This document shows positions 15,432 to 27,770 of a DNA stretch of 64,000 nt, in pieces. Each line of letters opens with the position of its first letter. The stretch's first letter is position 1. The notes beneath the pieces were generated by a model. That model saw nothing but the letters and a program-made list of their open reading frames with translations. It made no database searches and was not told where the DNA came from. A program made the translations under genes and the position numbers. This DNA is from a virus (taxonomy: Duplodnaviria > Heunggongvirae > Uroviricota > Caudoviricetes): positions 141,169-205,168 of the IMG/VR virus record IMGVR_UViG_3300037423_001636. One strand, written 5' to 3'.

Positions 15432-15506
15432 GCCTCTGTGATGTAACAGCAAGCATGTGACATTGCCAATGTCAGCGACCGAGGGCAGCACTCGGCAGGG
15501 GCACCA
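15432..15506 (+). tRNA. tRNA-Gly(GCC)
   Basis: Acceptor GCCTCTG/CAGGGGC. Anticodon arm TGACA-TTGCCAA-TGTCA. T arm CCGAG-GGCAGCA-CTCGG. Encoded CCA. Confidence 0.55.
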
Positions 15507-15654
15507 TTTTGAACGTCTCAATGTCGGCTTTCAATGGCTAAGAAAGCCCGCGAGAATGCGGGGAACGAATGGTGGGTGCCGTTGAGAGCCCTTTTCGCCA
15601 TTCTGCATGATGCTGCTGCCTCAACATCCAAGGCATCCGTTCAATTGAATTTTT

Positions 15655-15745
15655 GGGTCGGTGCCTAGAGTAGCGATTAGCTCGGCCTTTTAAGCCGCCG
15701 CGGGTCACACCGCCATCGGGGGTGCGAGTCCCTCCCGACCCACCA
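15655..15745 (+). tRNA. tRNA-Leu(TAA), class II
   Basis: Perfect acceptor GGGTCGG/CCGACCC. Anticodon loop TTTTAAG. Long variable arm. T arm GGGGG-TGCGAGT-CCCTC. Encoded CCA. Confidence 0.6.
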
Positions 15746-15751
15746 ATTTAC

Positions 15752-15826
15752 GGCGTGTTCGTCAAGTAGTAAGACCGGAGCTTGCAAACCTCCTATACGC
15801 TGGTGCAAATCCAGCACGCGCCTCCA
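15752..15826 (+). tRNA. tRNA-Cys(GCA)
   Basis: Acceptor GGCGTGT/ACGCGCC. Anticodon loop TTGCAAA. T arm GCTGG-TGCAAAT-CCAGC. Encoded CCA. Confidence 0.5.
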
Positions 15827-15976
15827 CTCTCCCCTCTGGGCTCTGCGCTTCAGCAGGCGTCTGACCAGTATGCGGGCCGACAAGGCAAACCGCGAAGGAT
15901 GCGAGGAACCATCGTTGTTGGTGAGGCTCTAGAGCCGAACTGACTATAGCCCCGACGTATACTGGGGCAGAATTTC

Positions 15977-16059
15977 GGGGGATGGGAATGCTATAGTGTG
16001 TTCGCCTGTTTCGCAAACAGGATATTAACAGTCCGGGGCAGATCCGGAATCCTCCACCA
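15977..16059 (+). tRNA. tRNA-Ala(CGC)
   Basis: Acceptor GGGGGAT/ATCCTCC with a G3:U70 alanine identity pair. Anticodon arm CCTGT-TTCGCAA-ACAGG. T arm TCCGG-GGCAGAT-CCGGA. Encoded CCA. Confidence 0.6.
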
Positions 16060-16143
16060 TTTTAACACACTGTTCATAAGGCACTTCTGTGATTTGTAGG
16101 TGGGTTGCACACAACCTCCACCATATAGCGTGTAAACCTATGC

Positions 16144-17007
16144 GTGGCAAAAAGACCTACAGTAACATTGGTGTGCGCATATACTGGAGAGACATTCGAG
16201 AAAGATCGTCGAGAATACCATCGTCAGCTTCGTAATGGGGCCACTCACTTTTACAAGGACAGTAAAGCAGCTGCTTTGGCCAGCGCTGAGGCAAGACGAC
16301 TGAAGCCAGTAGATAGGATTTGTCCACATTGCGGAAACACTTTCGAGGTGATACCGAGACGCCGGGCGGCGACATTTTGTTCTTCTCGTTGCGCTGCCCA
16401 CTATGGGCATGATCAGCTTAAAGCGAATCCGGAGCGAATGCTTACATTTCAAGAAAATGCGTCTGCGGCAGGAAAGAAAGCGTGGGCCGCCGGAAAACAC
16501 GATAACGCCATTCATCGAAATGGGCGTCGTCGCGCAAAAATCGAATCGCGTGGTTGCGCGGTGTGTGGTGCTGGGTTCGAATGCAAAGACAACAGCAAGC
16601 GCAAAACCTGCGGCAAGCCAGAATGCAAAAGGGAGGCTACTGCTCGCGGAGTTAGAGCCAACCCCAATTGTGGTGGAGAAAGCAATTATAGACGCTACAG
16701 ATACAAAGACATTTTGTTTGATTCGGCGTGGGAGCTTGAGATCGCTCAGTGGATGGACGGGGTTGGTATGCAATGGATTCGAGACAAAAAGATCTGGTTT
16801 CGCTGGACAGATCAAAATGGCACGATTAGACGTTATCACCCAGACTTCTACTTGCCCAGTTTTAATATTTATCTAGATCCCAAGAACAAGTTTCTACTGG
16901 AACGAGACGCTTTCAAGCTAGAGGCTGTGAAACGTGAGCATGGCATCAATCTCGTTTGGGGGAGTAGGGAAGAGATTTTAGTCTTCCTTCAGAATCTATT
17001 GGGGTAG
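16144..17007 (+). CDS. Putative homing endonuclease (N-terminal zinc ribbons + C-terminal PD-(D/E)xK-like nuclease domain) inserted in the tRNA array
   Basis: 287 aa. There are several CxxC pairs (CPHCG, CAVCG, CGKPEC). The C-terminus reads DSAWELEIAQWMD...YHPDFYLPSFNIYLDPKNK...EHGINLVW, the restriction-endonuclease-like pattern of phage homing endonucleases. It is the only ORF inside the tRNA array. Confidence 0.5.
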   Translation: MAKRPTVTLVCAYTGETFEKDRREYHRQLRNGATHFYKDSKAAALASAEARRLKPVDRICPHCGNTFEVIPRRRAATFCSSRCAAHYGHDQLKANPERMLTFQENASAAGKKAWAAGKHDNAIHRNGRRRAKIESRGCAVCGAGFECKDNSKRKTCGKPECKREATARGVRANPNCGGESNYRRYRYKDILFDSAWELEIAQWMDGVGMQWIRDKKIWFRWTDQNGTIRRYHPDFYLPSFNIYLDPKNKFLLERDAFKLEAVKREHGINLVWGSREEILVFLQNLLG

Positions 17008-17089
17008 TGGCACGACAAGTAAGGCACCGCGTTTGCAATGCGTAAGAGCGTAAGCTCGAATAGGGGCGCGATACCCCTCTACTCCACCA
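17001..17089 (+). tRNA. Class II tRNA-like unit; anticodon unresolved (loop TTTGCAA, possibly TGC)
   Basis: Acceptor GGGGTAG/CTACTCC. T arm AGGGG-CGCGATA-CCCCT. A variable-arm hairpin GAGC-GTAA-GCTC is present. Encoded CCA. The D and anticodon arms are imperfect. Confidence 0.4.
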
Positions 17090-17222
17090 TCTTGGGTATC
17101 CAATCCCGTGGCTAGAGGCCACCGTTTGGGCCGCGATAGCGTCCACCAATTTGGCTAGCGACCTTCGGGTGTCTAGCTCCCGTTTGAGTCGGGCGTTCCG
17201 CGGTGGCGATAAACCCCTTTGT

Positions 17223-17300
17223 GTGAGCGTGGGCCAGATAGCAGGCCGCCATCCTTCCAAGCTGGTTTTTACGCGGATGCGAGTTCCGCCGCTCACTCCA
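17223..17300 (+). tRNA. tRNA-Gly(TCC)
   Basis: Perfect acceptor GTGAGCG/CGCTCAC. D stem GGCC/GGCC. Anticodon loop CTTCCAA. T arm GCGGA-TGCGAGT-TCCGC. Encoded CCA. Confidence 0.5.
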
Positions 17301-17431
17301 CTTTCCCGTCCTGAGAACAAAGGCCCATTGGGACTAGCTAGCATGATTCTGGTGGGGTCAGCAAAGGCTATGGACCCGCGGTCCATATCGGATGGCTCAG
17401 CCGGATTGCAACGGCACGGGAATTCACTTTT

Positions 17432-26336: not shown

Positions 26337-26337
26337 C

Positions 26338-26413
26338 TTTCCCGTCGTCTAATCAGATAAGGCCCGGGTTTCCTAGACCCGTGAACACGGAGCATAGCCG
26401 TGCGGGAAAACCA
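26338..26413 (+). tRNA. tRNA-Arg(CCT)
   Basis: Perfect acceptor TTTCCCG/CGGGAAA. Anticodon arm CGGGT-TTCCTAG-ACCCG. T arm CACGG-AGCATAG-CCGTG. Encoded CCA. It starts 1 nt after the previous CCA. Confidence 0.55.
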
Positions 26414-26419
26414 TTTTAT

Positions 26420-26507
26420 GGAGGGTGCCGGGGCGATTCCCCAAGCGGTCTTGAAAACCGTGGTGCCGCGCAAGCGACAATGGTGAAACCCCATCACCTC
26501 TCCGCCA
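26420..26507 (+). tRNA. Class II tRNA-like, Ser-like (anticodon loop CTTGAAA, TGA); acceptor imperfect
   Basis: Anticodon arm GCGGT-CTTGAAA-ACCGT. Long variable region. T arm GGTGA-AACCCCA-TCACC. The unit ends GCCA. The acceptor pairing GGAGGGT/CCTCTCC is incomplete. Confidence 0.3.
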
Positions 26508-26544
26508 ATCTCATAGAGTTTTCTCTTGACGTGTCGTAGACACT

Positions 26545-27156
26545 GTGCATCGTCGATGTTCTATGCTCATCATCACCTTCCTATCTGGTGTCGTCGATTG
26601 GATTGTCTTTGGCTGGCTCTTCTGGGTACTGTTGCCAATCTGCATCTGGACACCACACGCCATCTGCAAATCTGCTAGGAAAGATTTTGAGGGTGGTGCG
26701 CTGTTCTTTGTATTGCCCTTACTTGGCCTCGTTTGGTGGCGCTGGCCCGGGCTGTTTCCGCACACGTGGGGTGGCTGGACATGGTTGACCGTAGCTTACC
26801 TTTTCGTTGGCTTCGTTTATTCTCTGGGCAAGTATGTCAGGACTCTAGGACGATTCAAGGCGGCGGTGCAAGCTGCCTTGCCTCTCGCAAAGGCTCGTGA
26901 TAACGGAATCCGACTTCCCTGCAATGTTCAACAGCAGTTGGACGCCGAATGGACCGGCAAGATAACAATTCTTTCAAACGATAGCGGCCTCATTCTCGAC
27001 TGGCGGCGGCTTCCCTTGGCTAACTGGTGGATTTACTGGCCGTGGTTCTCTCTAAGCTCGGTCTTTACCTTCATCCAGAATTTCGGCAAGAATCTAGTCA
27101 ACCTGTTTCGTGGGCTCTACGACAAGCTGGCGGCGCGGTTCGCAGTTAAGCTATGA
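26545..27156 (+). CDS. Hypothetical integral membrane protein
   Basis: 203 aa with several hydrophobic stretches (for example IITFLSGVVDWIVFGWLFWVLLPICIW and GGALFFVLPLLGLVWW). It lies between the Arg and Ser tRNA sub-clusters. Confidence 0.45.
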   Translation: MHRRCSMLIITFLSGVVDWIVFGWLFWVLLPICIWTPHAICKSARKDFEGGALFFVLPLLGLVWWRWPGLFPHTWGGWTWLTVAYLFVGFVYSLGKYVRTLGRFKAAVQAALPLAKARDNGIRLPCNVQQQLDAEWTGKITILSNDSGLILDWRRLPLANWWIYWPWFSLSSVFTFIQNFGKNLVNLFRGLYDKLAARFAVKL

Positions 27157-27497
27157 CTGTTACCATCTACTATTTCTTTTGCGGTCAATGGCATTACTTC
27201 GTTGCTAATCGTGAGATACTGGATTGGCCAGAAACACAGAATCTGATCGCATTGGGCTTTTATCGTGTAGATTCATGAAGACTCCAATCGTGGCGGCCGA
27301 AATCAGTCTGGACGTTCCTCACTGGAAGGTGGGCGACAATATGGGCACCGGTCCCGATGATCCCGAAGGTTTCGGTATCGGCCAGATCGCGGTTGTGGAC
27401 AAAGGCGGCGGCAAGTATGACGTTGTTTTCTACGATAAGAATGGCAAGGACCGGGGTTCGCTTAAACTAAAAAATAGGTGAAATCCTTAATAATTTC

Positions 27498-27586
27498 GGA
27501 AGGTGGGGCCACCGAGCGGTGGACCGTGATTGGAAATCACGTGCCTCGGGAAACCGGGGCCAGCGCGACTCTGGCACCTTCCGCCA
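27498..27586 (+). tRNA. tRNA-Ser(GGA), class II
   Basis: Perfect acceptor GGAAGGT/ACCTTCC. Anticodon arm CGTGA-TTGGAAA-TCACG. Long variable arm. T arm GCCAG-CGCGACT-CTGGC. Encoded CCA. The D arm is an unusual 5-bp stem with a 4-nt loop. Confidence 0.6.
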
Positions 27587-27587
27587 T

Positions 27588-27678
27588 GGAGGACAAACTG
27601 ACATAGGGTCAGGCTCGTTTCGAAAACGATGCGGAGATGAATCAAGCTCTGGAGTGCAACGCTTCCTGTCCTCCTCCA
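27588..27678 (+). tRNA. Class II tRNA, Ser-like (CGA); T arm unresolved
   Basis: Perfect acceptor GGAGGAC/GTCCTCC with an encoded CCA. Anticodon arm (C)TCGT-TTCGAAA-ACGA(T). The unit is 91 nt long. No clean 5-bp T stem was found. Confidence 0.4.
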
Positions 27679-27685
27679 TTTTTAC

Positions 27686-27770
27686 GGTAGCGTAACCAGA
27701 TAGGGTGCTGGACCTCATTGCTAATGAGTGGGACGGGGTAACCAATCCACGTTGGATTTCGAGTATTCAC
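27686..27770 (+). tRNA. tRNA-Ser(GCT), class II, with a canonical T loop
   Basis: Perfect acceptor GGTAGCG/CGCTACC. Anticodon arm CTCA-TTGCTAA-TGAG. Long variable arm. T arm TGGAT-TTCGAGT-ATTCA (canonical TTCG loop). Encoded CCA. Confidence 0.6.

Follow-up and report, generated by a model that had tools for sequence, protein, structure and literature searches.

The 64-kb stretch of DNA analysed here (the window; positions 141,169 to 205,168 of the IMG/VR virus record IMGVR_UViG_3300037423_001636, 53% G+C) carries on its plus strand an array of 46 transfer RNA (tRNA) or tRNA-like units at 15432-27780 (12.3 kb), and 43 of these units have G at position 55 of the T loop, U55 being found in three. 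Among the 39 G55 tRNAs with a clear anticodon, 32 combine G55 with A18-G19 in the D loop (28 unambiguous, four probable), two have A18-C19 with G56, one has A18-U19 with G56, two leucine tRNAs have Y18-G19 (Y, pyrimidine), and two are unclear. A18 is therefore present in 35 of the 39, and the canonical elbow, G18-G19 with U54-U55-C56, is confined to three units, namely tRNA-Pro(CGG) at 18853, tRNA-Ser(GCU) at 27686, and a tRNA-like unit at 22113, which are the three U55 units and all have GG in the D region. The original prediction, made from the letters alone, had reported G55 in about 35 of 40 foldable units; the fuller count bears this out, and the observation is confirmed and broader than first described. 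The T loops it quoted (TGCGAGT, TGCAACT, GGCAGCA, AGCGTAA, and CGCGACT), its D loops (AACAGCA, ATCAGTTA, and AGCCAGTA), and the two canonical exceptions it named, Pro(CGG) and Ser(GCU), are all present as described. The sequences of these two U55 tRNAs are too divergent from the G55 array genes of Opitutaceae to show whether they are reverted orthologues of them.

The units were recovered by a CCA-anchored cloverleaf scan, an unfiltered custom covariance model, and constrained folding. The scan, which required a 7-bp acceptor stem, a 5-bp T stem, a 7-nucleotide (nt) loop, and N73-CCA, yielded about 45 units; the custom model was built on a gap-free seed of six array tRNAs, and neither scan nor model gave a convincing tRNA unit in the rest of the window. 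ARAGORN reported 18 tRNAs of the 46 units, and the Rfam model RF00005 reported 12 units at its gathering score when applied to the whole window; with the search confined to the region it reported 17 at 29 bits or more, about 24 real tRNAs falling below this 29-bit threshold or not being reported. Published tRNA counts of phages and Verrucomicrobia are therefore likely underestimates. In the 32 best custom-model units, 96.4% of stem cells are paired and both sides have changed at all 21 pairs, which identifies the units as genuine cloverleaves. Their dimensions are those of ordinary tRNAs (7-bp acceptor, 3-4-bp D, 5-bp anticodon, and 5-bp T stems, with 7-nt anticodon and T loops), and the 5-bp T stem with a 7-nt loop occupies 98.8% of cells in the custom-model alignment.

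Anticodons could be assigned to 41 array tRNAs and cover all 20 amino acids, and the array encodes a nearly complete decoding set, with no recognisable initiator tRNA in the window array. The marks of functional identity are in place: all three alanine tRNAs have G3:U70, the histidine tRNA has C73, the leucine, serine, and tyrosine tRNAs have long variable arms, and the discriminator bases obey bacterial rules. CCA is encoded, and in most units is followed by (A/T)TTT; five protein genes interrupt the array, and many spacers between units are only 4-8 nt.

The position of G55 is secure. In the printed Rfam alignments, the consensus UUCGAAU is matched to UGCGAGU-type loops in 10 of 10 cases, with G at 55 at maximum posterior probability, and the consensus AaUGGU is aligned to AAUAGA-type D loops; in the custom-model alignment the second T-loop base is G in 32 of 32 units. 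There is practically no chance that a shifted T-loop register conceals a normal U55, because Rfam's own model puts G at 55 while C56, R57 (R, purine), and A58 stay in register in the G55 units, and such misregistration is ruled out by both alignments and by the near-constant T-arm geometry. Realignment with covariance models, named beforehand as a way to refute the prediction, thus left position 55 as G. The D-loop numbering is set by the swaps at 19-56. Among the G55 tRNAs of other loci, AC occurs in the D loop of eight of 10 with G56 as against six of 569 with C56 (p = 4e-13), so that position 56 pairs with the latter base of the dinucleotide, which must be position 19, and the A must be position 18. 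The predicted numbering (A18, G19, G55, and C56) is therefore correct, and G19-C56 is kept as claimed; where position 56 is G, the D loop reads AC (C19).

The covariation of positions 18 and 55 is likewise real. In the window, 35 tRNAs combine G55 with A18, three units combine U55 with G18, and neither mixed class is represented (35/0/0/3), for which the exact test gives 1/C(38,3), about 1e-4. The comparison set consisted of 1,700 tRNAs from 320 other loci (L001-L320), in which the C56 tRNAs fall into 500 G55/AG, 34 G55/GG, 10 U55/AG, and 1013 U55/GG (odds ratio about 1490). This coupling is not a selection effect, because the D loop was part of no search pattern. Avoidance of a restriction site at TTCGAA was also considered and rejected, as it fails to account for the coupled D-loop change.

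The same elbow occurs in other viruses. A scan of IMG/VR with GGTGCGAGTCC-N11-CCA, which selects for G55, matched at least 120 loci, over half of which hold cloverleaf-validated G55 tRNAs, mostly inside tRNA arrays; the viral arrays L075, L087, L111, and L116 are wholly G55. With a neutral pattern (N at 55), T was found in 135 matches comprising 117 new loci and G solely in three loci already found, and 14 of the 514 tRNAs in the neutral loci were G55/A18, so the A18/G55 elbow makes up roughly 2-3% of sampled phage tRNAs. Of the roughly 590 G55 tRNAs at other loci, 399 have a TGCRA or CGCRA loop. The 54-58 pair in G55 tRNAs is U.A in 64%, G.G in 12%, A.U in 11%, C.A in 6%, and C.C in 5%, as compared with 95% U.A in U55 tRNAs.

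Among cellular organisms, 185,579 species genomes were scanned with GGGGGTGCGAGTCCCTC, giving 81 matches, of which about 50 are real tRNAs. Native single A18/G55 genes stand beside canonical neighbours in several phyla, including tRNA-Cys(GCA) in at least 13 Bdellovibrionota genomes and tRNA-Tyr(GUA) and tRNA-Cys in Saccharibacteria, and Myxococcales arrays hold a GGCAG-type tRNA-Pro among canonical tRNAs. The native single A18/G55 tRNAs lie at loci L123, L126, L127, L139, L141, L147, L148, L157, L158, L179, and L183, and at L129, L131, L159, L160, and L166. These genes indicate that the universal machinery accepts the design; they also lower any claim that it is categorically new and weaken the argument that the elbow serves as a weapon. 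Where an isolated gene has G55 but keeps GG, it differs from a canonical gene by a single base. Of the three tRNA-Leu(CAG) copies that stand in tandem in Undibacterium oligocarboniphilum (L164, 6347-6878), one has G55 with G18G19 and an acceptor-stem mismatch. Such isolated copies look like decayed genes, and L164 would serve as a natural control for the unmatched state.

The tRNA-specific T loop consists of U54-Psi55-C56-R57-A58 (Psi, pseudouridine), with G18 slotted between 57 and 58. The elbow described here would instead be built on the generic YGNRA T loop (N, any nucleotide), as U/C54-G55-C56-R57-A58, with A18 as the slotted base. About 32 of the 43 G55 units have a loop of this type (TGCGA in 13, TGCAA in seven, CGCRA in four, TGGRA in three, TGARA in four, and TGTGA in one), and the others read GGCAG (six), AGCRU (four), or AGCGA (one). 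In a study of flavin mononucleotide (FMN) and cobalamin riboswitches, the T loops are UGNRA in 88.7% and CGNRA in 10.9%, the intercalating base is A in 99.96% of sequences, and the solved env8 structure shows the intercalated A making two hydrogen bonds to the sugar edge of the position-2 G (bioRxiv 10.1101/2022.12.26.521914). According to the same study, G at T-loop position 2 with an intercalated A is the commonest T-loop arrangement outside tRNA, GGAAG is a distinctive T loop of ribosomal RNA (rRNA), and tRNA T loops are held distinct for their U at position 2 (bioRxiv 10.1101/2022.12.26.521914).

The predicted elbow would resemble these riboswitch T loops (PDB 4FRG and 4FRN, as cited there) in its YGNRA sequence, in an A placed between positions 4 and 5 and bonded to the sugar edge of the position-2 G, and in a position 3 left free for a long-range Watson-Crick pair; the GGCAG loops of the array resemble the GGAAG loop of rRNA. 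It would differ in that the riboswitch T loops make tertiary contacts there, whereas here a riboswitch-type solution is found within tRNAs. From the covariation together with this analogy, we strongly infer that the array tRNAs use the general T-loop/adenosine corner instead of the tRNA-specific one, and this structural reading of the elbow is well supported. The A18:G55 contact proposed at the outset in place of G18:Psi55 agrees with the 18-55 covariation and the retained G19-C56, but is not unprecedented, since a T-loop position-2 G with an intercalated A is known outside tRNA. The exposed G19-C56 pair, the stacking platform for the ribosome, RNase P, and other partners, would be kept or swapped to C19-G56, and with this platform preserved the translation machinery should still be able to dock.

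The array is a member of a mobile cassette common to Opitutaceae chromosomes and their phages. The genome matches are concentrated in Opitutaceae and other Verrucomicrobiota, two complete chromosomes (OZ245769.1 and OZ257259.1) included, where the 8-kb loci hold 10-20 tRNAs, all G55. The window array is collinear with at least 15 such arrays and with the viral contig L116, the common order being Gly(GCC)-Lys(UUU)-..-Trp-Phe-Pro(UGG)-Asp-Val(UAC)-Asn-..-Gln(UUG)-Ala(GGC)-Lys(CUU)-Met-..-Thr(GGU)-Leu(CAG)-Glu-Thr(UGU)-Arg-..-Ser(GCU). A TROVE/Ro60 gene lies inside the window array and inside many bacterial arrays (28-33% identity), and the HNH_4 endonuclease that closes the array (27820..28497, plus strand; PF13395) is the most conserved protein in common with the Opitutaceae chromosomal arrays, being 54-59% identical to its counterparts in L125, L128, L134, L135, L140, L146, L162, L174, L193, and L199. 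It has 2978 homologues, and all those with a named source are from Opitutaceae.

Two cultured strains carry the bacterial form. In Synoicihabitans lomoniglobus, a LysR gene and at least 16 G55 tRNAs are followed, in this order, by genes for HNH, a sigma-factor-like protein, AAA, RtcB, Band_7, two copies of RlaP, R2K, and HD, and in Opitutaceae bacterium EW11 a shorter array has the same HNH-sigma-AAA-RtcB-RlaP setting (islands L331 10001-20560 and L333 10001-14375). The sigma gene is sigma70-like, and the cultured-strain locus resembles an island for RNA repair equipped with a sigma factor of its own. The bacterial version of the cassette has the array directly upstream of the HNH, sigma-factor-like, AAA ATPase, RtcB, and RlaP genes, and the phage version has TROVE, HNH-RNA ligase, and homing endonuclease genes interleaved with the tRNAs. 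No initiator tRNA was seen in L125, L128, L130, L134, L135, L154, L168, L170, L178, L185, or L193; in the same 11 loci, the CAU-anticodon tRNA of the Opitutaceae-type arrays has discriminator C73 and is without the initiator signature. The stand-alone tRNA-Val(CAC) of EW11, 2.7 kb from the array, is fully canonical, and in L125 one canonical gene heads the array. The suggestion that the elbow is phage-specific does not hold, since all-G55 arrays in the same order occur in Opitutaceae chromosomes, including those of cultured strains, and single native tRNAs occur elsewhere. The other early suggestion, that it is the host's own tRNA type, stands for the host's accessory array but not for the canonical stand-alone tRNA-Val of EW11.

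Taken together, an explanation that joins the elbow design, the mobile cassette, and a spare tRNA pool seems to us fairly probable. We infer that the array would serve as a spare pool when ordinary tRNAs are damaged or depleted, whether in phage-host conflict or under translational stress. Its 18-55 contact would be unlike that of housekeeping tRNAs, and the pool would escape factors that read U55/Psi55, G18, or the canonical T loop; because G55 is unable to become Psi55 and the 18-55 contact is different, the pool would fold without TruB and should escape such readers. Phage-specific evasion of an elbow-reading nuclease, which the original prediction put forward as speculation, is not supported, and evasion of such a nuclease in general would be a hypothetical role. 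RtcB operons respond to broken tRNAs (PMC7790460), and jumbo phages pair tRNAs, RNA ligases (some HNH-fused), and TROVE as RNA-repair modules against host RNases (PMC7824862). A stronger proposal, which we regard as doubtful, is that A18/G55 is a mark of 'self' that splits tRNAs into two pools separable by an enzyme reading the elbow or T loop. If so, the phage or the bacterial RtcB island might provide a complete decoding set that resists a nuclease or toxin active against canonical tRNAs, or the phage might break down the canonical tRNAs of its host and rely on its own for translation. Each would amount to the first case of an entire tRNA set made orthogonal at the elbow, and would offer a natural model for engineered orthogonal tRNAs.

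Several observations weigh against the spare-pool explanation. Neither the window nor the related loci revealed a nuclease, toxin, or modification enzyme able to tell the two elbows apart, and the search of about 60 window open reading frames (ORFs) with Pfam and PHROGs, which gave no elbow-specific enzyme or nuclease, yielded only replication genes, endonucleases, the ligase, TROVE, NADAR, Macro, SPFH, and a PurZ-like gene. The evidence that host housekeeping tRNAs are canonical consists of the one stand-alone gene of EW11 and the array-head gene of L125. Arrays with HNH and TROVE in other phyla are mostly canonical (L143, L180, and L197), and many phage arrays mix G55 and U55 types (L003 and L008). 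The elbow is also carried by individual tRNAs of Bdellovibrionota and Saccharibacteria that seem otherwise ordinary, and can thus exist without a role in conflict. Finally, in a nearest-neighbour comparison of the window tRNAs with 953 canonical and 539 G55 tRNAs, identities of 62-84% do not separate an independent origin of each isoacceptor from duplication within the array.

The main rival to the spare pool is that A18/G55 is a neutral mark of an old cassette, near-neutral and structurally equivalent to the canonical pair, and fixed by drift, gene conversion, or duplication with anticodon change. Tolerance of the elbow in ordinary single tRNAs of several phyla, the collinearity of the all-G55 arrays, which makes them one lineage, and the compatibility of the nearest-neighbour result with duplication within the array all agree with such a mark, as does the relaxed 54-58 pair (36% not U.A in G55 tRNAs versus 5% in U55 tRNAs). 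It would nevertheless have to account for about 40 tRNAs of all specificities that carry the double change and yet keep their own identity elements, several of which (Lys CUU, Pro GGG, and Leu) best match canonical tRNAs for their own amino acid, and for the same trait in the non-collinear viral arrays L075, L087, and L111. The rarity of the elbow in cells (about 50 true matches in 185,579 species for one T-arm sequence), as compared with the neutral viral sample, where it reaches about 2-3%, also speaks against neutrality, and we consider this account possible but rather unlikely. Host mimicry, in which A18/G55 would be the normal translation set of Opitutaceae and the phage would carry host-type tRNAs, draws on the identical arrays that lie in Opitutaceae chromosomes among LysR, methyltransferase, and sigma factor genes. 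It is improbable, given the canonical stand-alone tRNA-Val(CAC) of EW11, the lack of an initiator tRNA in the arrays, and the link of the array to HNH endonuclease and RtcB instead of housekeeping loci; moreover, Verrucomicrobia mostly use stand-alone tRNA genes, long arrays being extra genes (PMC8421152).

The change might also act at the DNA level, the T-to-G substitution spoiling a conserved homing endonuclease site (the GGTTCGA box) and A18 compensating for it in the RNA. Five endonuclease genes do lie in or around the array, and T4 SegB reportedly cleaves inside tRNA genes and spreads the adjacent array (PMC8421152), but homing endonuclease sites are long and specific, so that one enzyme cannot cover about 40 genes. 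As HNH homologues are found equally often beside canonical and G55 arrays, and the native single genes have no endonuclease nearby, we hold such immunity to be very unlikely. It is just as improbable that the units stand outside translation, as decoys, Y-RNA-like partners of TROVE, or decaying pseudogenes. Five or six of them are abnormal (among them a minihelix at 20908 and tRNA-like units at 18933, 19710, 21377, and 22113), several show aberrant D arms or long variable arms where none is expected, and a TROVE gene lies inside the array; the high stem pairing with compensatory changes at every pair, the anticodon set for all amino acids with correct identity elements, and the gene order kept across many genomes nevertheless speak against such readings. 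The spare-pool reading remains the one that we prefer.

The original prediction did not recognise a described tRNA family here, and in agreement with this we found no description of A18/G55 tRNAs in open-access papers and preprints, a search that did not cover subscription journals and leaves room for an older account. Psi55 has been called 'universally conserved' (PMC4810234), and Pan et al. (2006), as cited in that article, are credited with showing that the 18-55 pair is needed for fast translocation. G18 and Psi55 have been held invariant in elongator tRNAs, and whole sets that replace both point to a second viable elbow design. These sets provide a natural system for probing the purpose of Psi55, TruB, and the 18-55 contact, and the covarying switch at 18-55 (and at 19-56) is a possible handle for orthogonal tRNA design. 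One family of long arrays is now tied to RtcB/RlaP/TROVE RNA-repair genes, with its tRNAs chemically distinguished, and the idea of a back-up tRNA pool is testable in the cultured S. lomoniglobus and EW11.

The individual units, all on the plus strand, are as follows. Both ARAGORN and Rfam recovered tRNA-Lys(UUU) with a long variable arm (15655..15745; T loop TGCGAGT; also constrained folding), tRNA-Cys(GCA) (15752..15826; D loop AGTAGTA, T loop TGCAAAT), tRNA-Tyr(GUA) (17432..17518; D AGCAGCAA, T TGCGAGT), tRNA-Ile(GAU) (17524..17598; D AACAGTCA, T TGCGAAT; also the custom model), tRNA-Pro(UGG) (17994..18068; D ATTAGCT, T TGCGATT), tRNA-Gln(UUG) (19053..19126; D AGAGTA, T TGCAAGT), tRNA-Gln(CUG) (19133..19206; D AATAGCA, T TGCGACT), and tRNA-Arg(GCG) (24927..25001; D AATAGACA, T TGCGAGT). 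The same two programs found the leucine tRNAs, namely Leu(GAG) (20347..20429; D GAACGTATA with C18 G19, T TGCGAGT), Leu(UAG) (20436..20520; D GTAACAAGCAG, T TGCAATT), Leu(UAA) (20968..21057; D GGAATGTATA with U18 G19, T TGCGAGT), Leu(CAA) (21217..21300; D AAATAGTAAA, T CGCGACT), and Leu(CAG) (20527..20611), in which 19-56 is swapped (T TGGAAAT with G56, D ..CTACTATA with A18 C19), as well as tRNA-Arg(UCU) (26086..26162; T TGGGATT with G56, D AGCTACATA with A18 C19). ARAGORN reported tRNA-Gly(UCC) (17223..17300; D AGATAGCA, T TGCGAGT) and tRNA-Asp(GUC) (18169..18242; D ATGAGTA, T TGCGAGT) and, together with the custom model, tRNA-Val(GAC) (18693..18767; D ATCAGTTA, T TGCAACT) and tRNA-Arg(CCU) (26338..26413; D AATCAGATA, T AGCATAG).

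Rfam reported tRNA-Ala(UGC) with G3:U70 and a long variable arm (17001..17089; D GACAAGTAA, T CGCGATA; 28 bits), tRNA-Val(UAC) (18528..18603; D AGCAGCTA, T TGCGAGT), tRNA-Pro(GGG) (18772..18846; D AACAGTA, T GGCAGCA), tRNA-Ala(GGC) with G3:U70 (19212..19287; D AGCCAGTA, T AGCGAAG), tRNA-Glu(CUC) (20829..20903; D ATACAGTA, T TGCAAGT; also the custom model), and a tRNA with anticodon CAU and a long variable arm (20105..20192; D GACAAGTA, T GGCAGTA; also constrained folding); a tRNA-Ser(UGA)-like unit with an irregular T arm (26420..26507; TGAAACC) was matched by the Rfam tRNA-Sec model at 25 bits. The custom model recovered tRNA-Gly(GCC) (15432..15506; D AACAGCAA with A18 G19, T GGCAGCA) at 73.6 bits, a gene missed by ARAGORN and Rfam, and also tRNA-Ala(CGC) with G3:U70 (15977..16059; D GCTATAGTGT, T GGCAGAT), tRNA-Trp(CCA) with a short D arm (17603..17673; D loop AGCA, T AGCGTTA with A54..U58), tRNA-Asn(GUU) (18611..18688; D TCTAGCGA, T AGCGTAA), tRNA-Lys(CUU) (19626..19704; D CAGTAGAC, T TGCAACT), tRNA-Thr(GGU) (20199..20273; D AGAAAGCG, T CGCAAGT), tRNA-Thr(CGU) with a 6-nt T loop (21577..21653; D AGATAGCG, T TGCGAT), tRNA-Thr(UGU) with a short D loop (24754..24825; D CAGC, T GGCAGCA), and tRNA-Arg(UCG) (26261..26336; T TGGGAGT with G56, D AATTATCA with A18 U19). 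A suppressor tRNA at 19626 was ruled out, the anticodon there being CUU (Lys).

Constrained folding and the custom model found tRNA-Glu(UUC) with an odd D arm (20746..20823; T AGCATCA) and tRNA-His(GUG) with C73 and a long variable arm (24833..24920; T TGTGAGA), and these two methods and the cloverleaf scan found tRNA-Phe(GAA) with an atypical D arm (17815..17887; TAGT, T TGCGATC) and tRNA-Ser(GGA) with an ambiguous D loop (27498..27586; T CGCGACT). The U55 exceptions tRNA-Pro(CGG) (18853..18928; T ATCGTAA, D CAAGGGCA with G18G19) and tRNA-Ser(GCU) (27686..27780; canonical TTCGAGT, GG in the D loop) were recovered by the cloverleaf scan and constrained folding. tRNA-Ser(CGA) (27588..27678; D ATAGG, T TGCAACG) has one extra base before the acceptor strand. 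Long variable arms in bacteria are normally confined to leucine, serine, and tyrosine tRNAs; unexpected stem-forming ones are present here in Lys(UUU) at 15655-15745, Ala(UGC) at 17001-17089, the CAU tRNA at 20105-20192, and His(GUG) at 24833-24920.

Four further units, at 18933-19046, 19710-19794, 20908-20961, and 21377-21467, keep an intact acceptor stem, T arm, discriminator, and CCA around an abnormal tRNA body. They comprise a 114-nt tRNA-like unit with a 7-bp acceptor stem and T arm (18933..19046; T TGAAATA), a tRNA-like unit with no clear cloverleaf (19710..19794; T TGAAATT; custom model and constrained folding), a 54-nt minihelix of acceptor stem and T arm only (20908..20961; T TGAGAAT; custom model and constrained folding), and a 91-nt tRNA-like unit (21377..21467; T GGCAGCA; cloverleaf scan, custom model, and constrained folding). 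Three of these body-less units have UGAAA or UGAGA T loops (A56, no 19-56 pair), while 21377-21467 differs in having GGCAG with C56. Directly upstream of the TROVE gene, the stretch 21654-22340 holds tRNA-like pieces with canonical elbow letters, including a CAU unit without CCA (22113..22195; TTCGAAC and GG; custom model) and, at 22199-22250, a GTGT-AATGGCA-GCAC arm with a GNRA hairpin. This stretch, in which the Rfam search reported no match, might encode an RNA that the Ro60 homologue binds in the manner of a Y RNA.

The motif CCA[AT]TT[TC] occurs on the plus strand 39 times in the array (15400-27800) and nine times in the remaining 51.6 kb; 35 of the 39 array copies fall at the 3' end of a tRNA, and the 4-8-nt spacer to the following tRNA often consists entirely of the A/U-rich tail. 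CCA+TTT tails are also present in the Opitutaceae arrays, and these A/U-rich tails may be a 3'-processing signal. A long non-tRNA gap has a weak match to the manA RNA motif at 19839-20103 (24.7 bits against a gathering score of 55.2), and other gaps of 100-340 nt, at 18243-18527 and 19288-19625, are without assigned content.

Besides the HNH_4 gene, the protein genes of the array include an HNH endonuclease gene just upstream of it (14744..15331, minus strand; phrog_2255, E 2e-38), whose homologues adjoin tRNA arrays in 15 other loci, and an endonuclease-like ORF inside it (16144..17007, plus strand; phrog_1271 and phrog_15137, HNH/endonuclease). Further inside are the TROVE/Ro60-like RNA-binding protein (22342..23850, plus strand; PF05731, E 1e-17; phrog_850), which is 28% identical to the TROVE protein of the Lacunisphaera array L199, a LAGLIDADG endonuclease (23795..24700, minus strand; PF14528; phrog_4645), and an HNH-RNA ligase fusion (25030..26079, plus strand; PF09414, E 5e-33; phrog_24030, E 3e-129) with HNH matches in its N-terminal part. 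Five endonuclease-type genes, namely three HNH, one LAGLIDADG, and one HNH-RNA ligase fusion, therefore lie in or at the edges of one 13-kb array.

The window also encodes a DnaB-type helicase, a primase, a DnaE-type polymerase, exonucleases, AAA ATPases, and a PurZ/PurA-like enzyme, and no structural gene was found within the 64 kb; its source is treated as a large phage or phage-like element. The adenylosuccinate-synthetase homologue at 36782-38110 has its best match in PHROG 1211, which would place it in the PurZ-type family of 2-aminoadenine-DNA phages. ORFs downstream of the array encode NADAR (31871-32503) and Macro (56370-56882) domain proteins, both for ADP-ribose handling, and SPFH/flotillin (52624-54402) and DUF4419 (30195-31295) proteins; a Band_7/SPFH gene is also present in the RtcB island of S. 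lomoniglobus. Megablast and blastn searches of the array against 50,697 GenBank phages gave generic tRNA similarity only and no close relative, and Vibrio phage pVp-1 (T5-like) and phage TH18 (rV5-like), which gave short matches only, have fully canonical arrays. The plasmids searched gave tRNA-Ala matches only. The relatives found in IMG/VR by DnaE share 28-42% identity, have a different G+C content, and lack arrays in the vicinity; no close backbone relative was found there.

Among known systems, the array is closest in organisation to the L-arrays, which are long, endonuclease-linked, horizontally transferred, and supernumerary, that of Anabaena being induced by translational stress (Santamaria-Gomez et al. 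2021; PMC8421152). Verrucomicrobia are among the phyla that have them, and the T loop, G18, and U55 are unmentioned in that account (PMC8421152). The likeness extends to dozens of same-strand tRNA genes with very short spacers, an HNH homing endonuclease, and the RtcB link: with 46 units in 12.3 kb, the array exceeds 20 same-strand tRNAs in a non-periodic arrangement, five endonuclease genes neighbour it, and the cassette is present both in a phage-like genome and in Opitutaceae chromosomes, as horizontal spread would have it. Unlike the L-arrays, it has a non-canonical elbow nearly throughout, lies in a phage-like genome, and has TROVE and an Rnl-type ligase instead of RtcB. With an RNA ligase (PF09414) and TROVE/Ro60 (PF05731) inside the array, it also has the make-up of an RNA-repair module, and is like the rsr-yrlBA-rtcBA operon (PMC7790460) and the jumbo-phage sets (PMC7824862) in having Ro60/TROVE, an RNA ligase (HNH-fused in phages), and tRNA or tRNA-like RNAs, with RtcB and RlaP in the bacterial loci; those modules, however, were described for repair enzymes and Y RNAs, with no tRNA set of altered elbow.

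Two groups of single tRNAs have comparable loops. The tRNA-Gly of S. epidermidis reportedly has GUGC in place of GTPsiC, according to work by Roberts in 1972-74. The non-proteinogenic tRNA-Gly of staphylococci is a bacterial tRNA without G18, G19, U55, and C56, but it has U18U19 or C18U19 and no 19-56 pair, and serves glycine and the cell wall only, outside translation (PMC4574755), whereas the array has all 20 specificities and keeps G19-C56. tRNA-Pyl likewise has neither G18G19 nor T54-Psi55-C56, and combines G55 with a retained U54.A58 and R57, but it differs in a 5-nt D loop, a 6-bp anticodon stem, a 3-nt variable loop, one base between acceptor and D stems, and no contact of 18/19 with the T loop (PMC1851642); the array tRNAs do not share this 5-nt D loop, 6-bp anticodon stem, 3-nt variable loop, and CUA anticodon.

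The array can finally be set beside phage tRNAs that evade host nucleases. Such tRNAs are said to escape anticodon nucleases through changes in the anticodon loop (van den Berg et al. in 2023, and the work on PARIS and retron-Eco7 in 2024). The likeness is that a phage tRNA differs at the site which a host nuclease reads; the difference is that those cases involve single tRNAs, the anticodon loop, and a demonstrated nuclease, whereas here a whole set of tRNAs is altered at the elbow.

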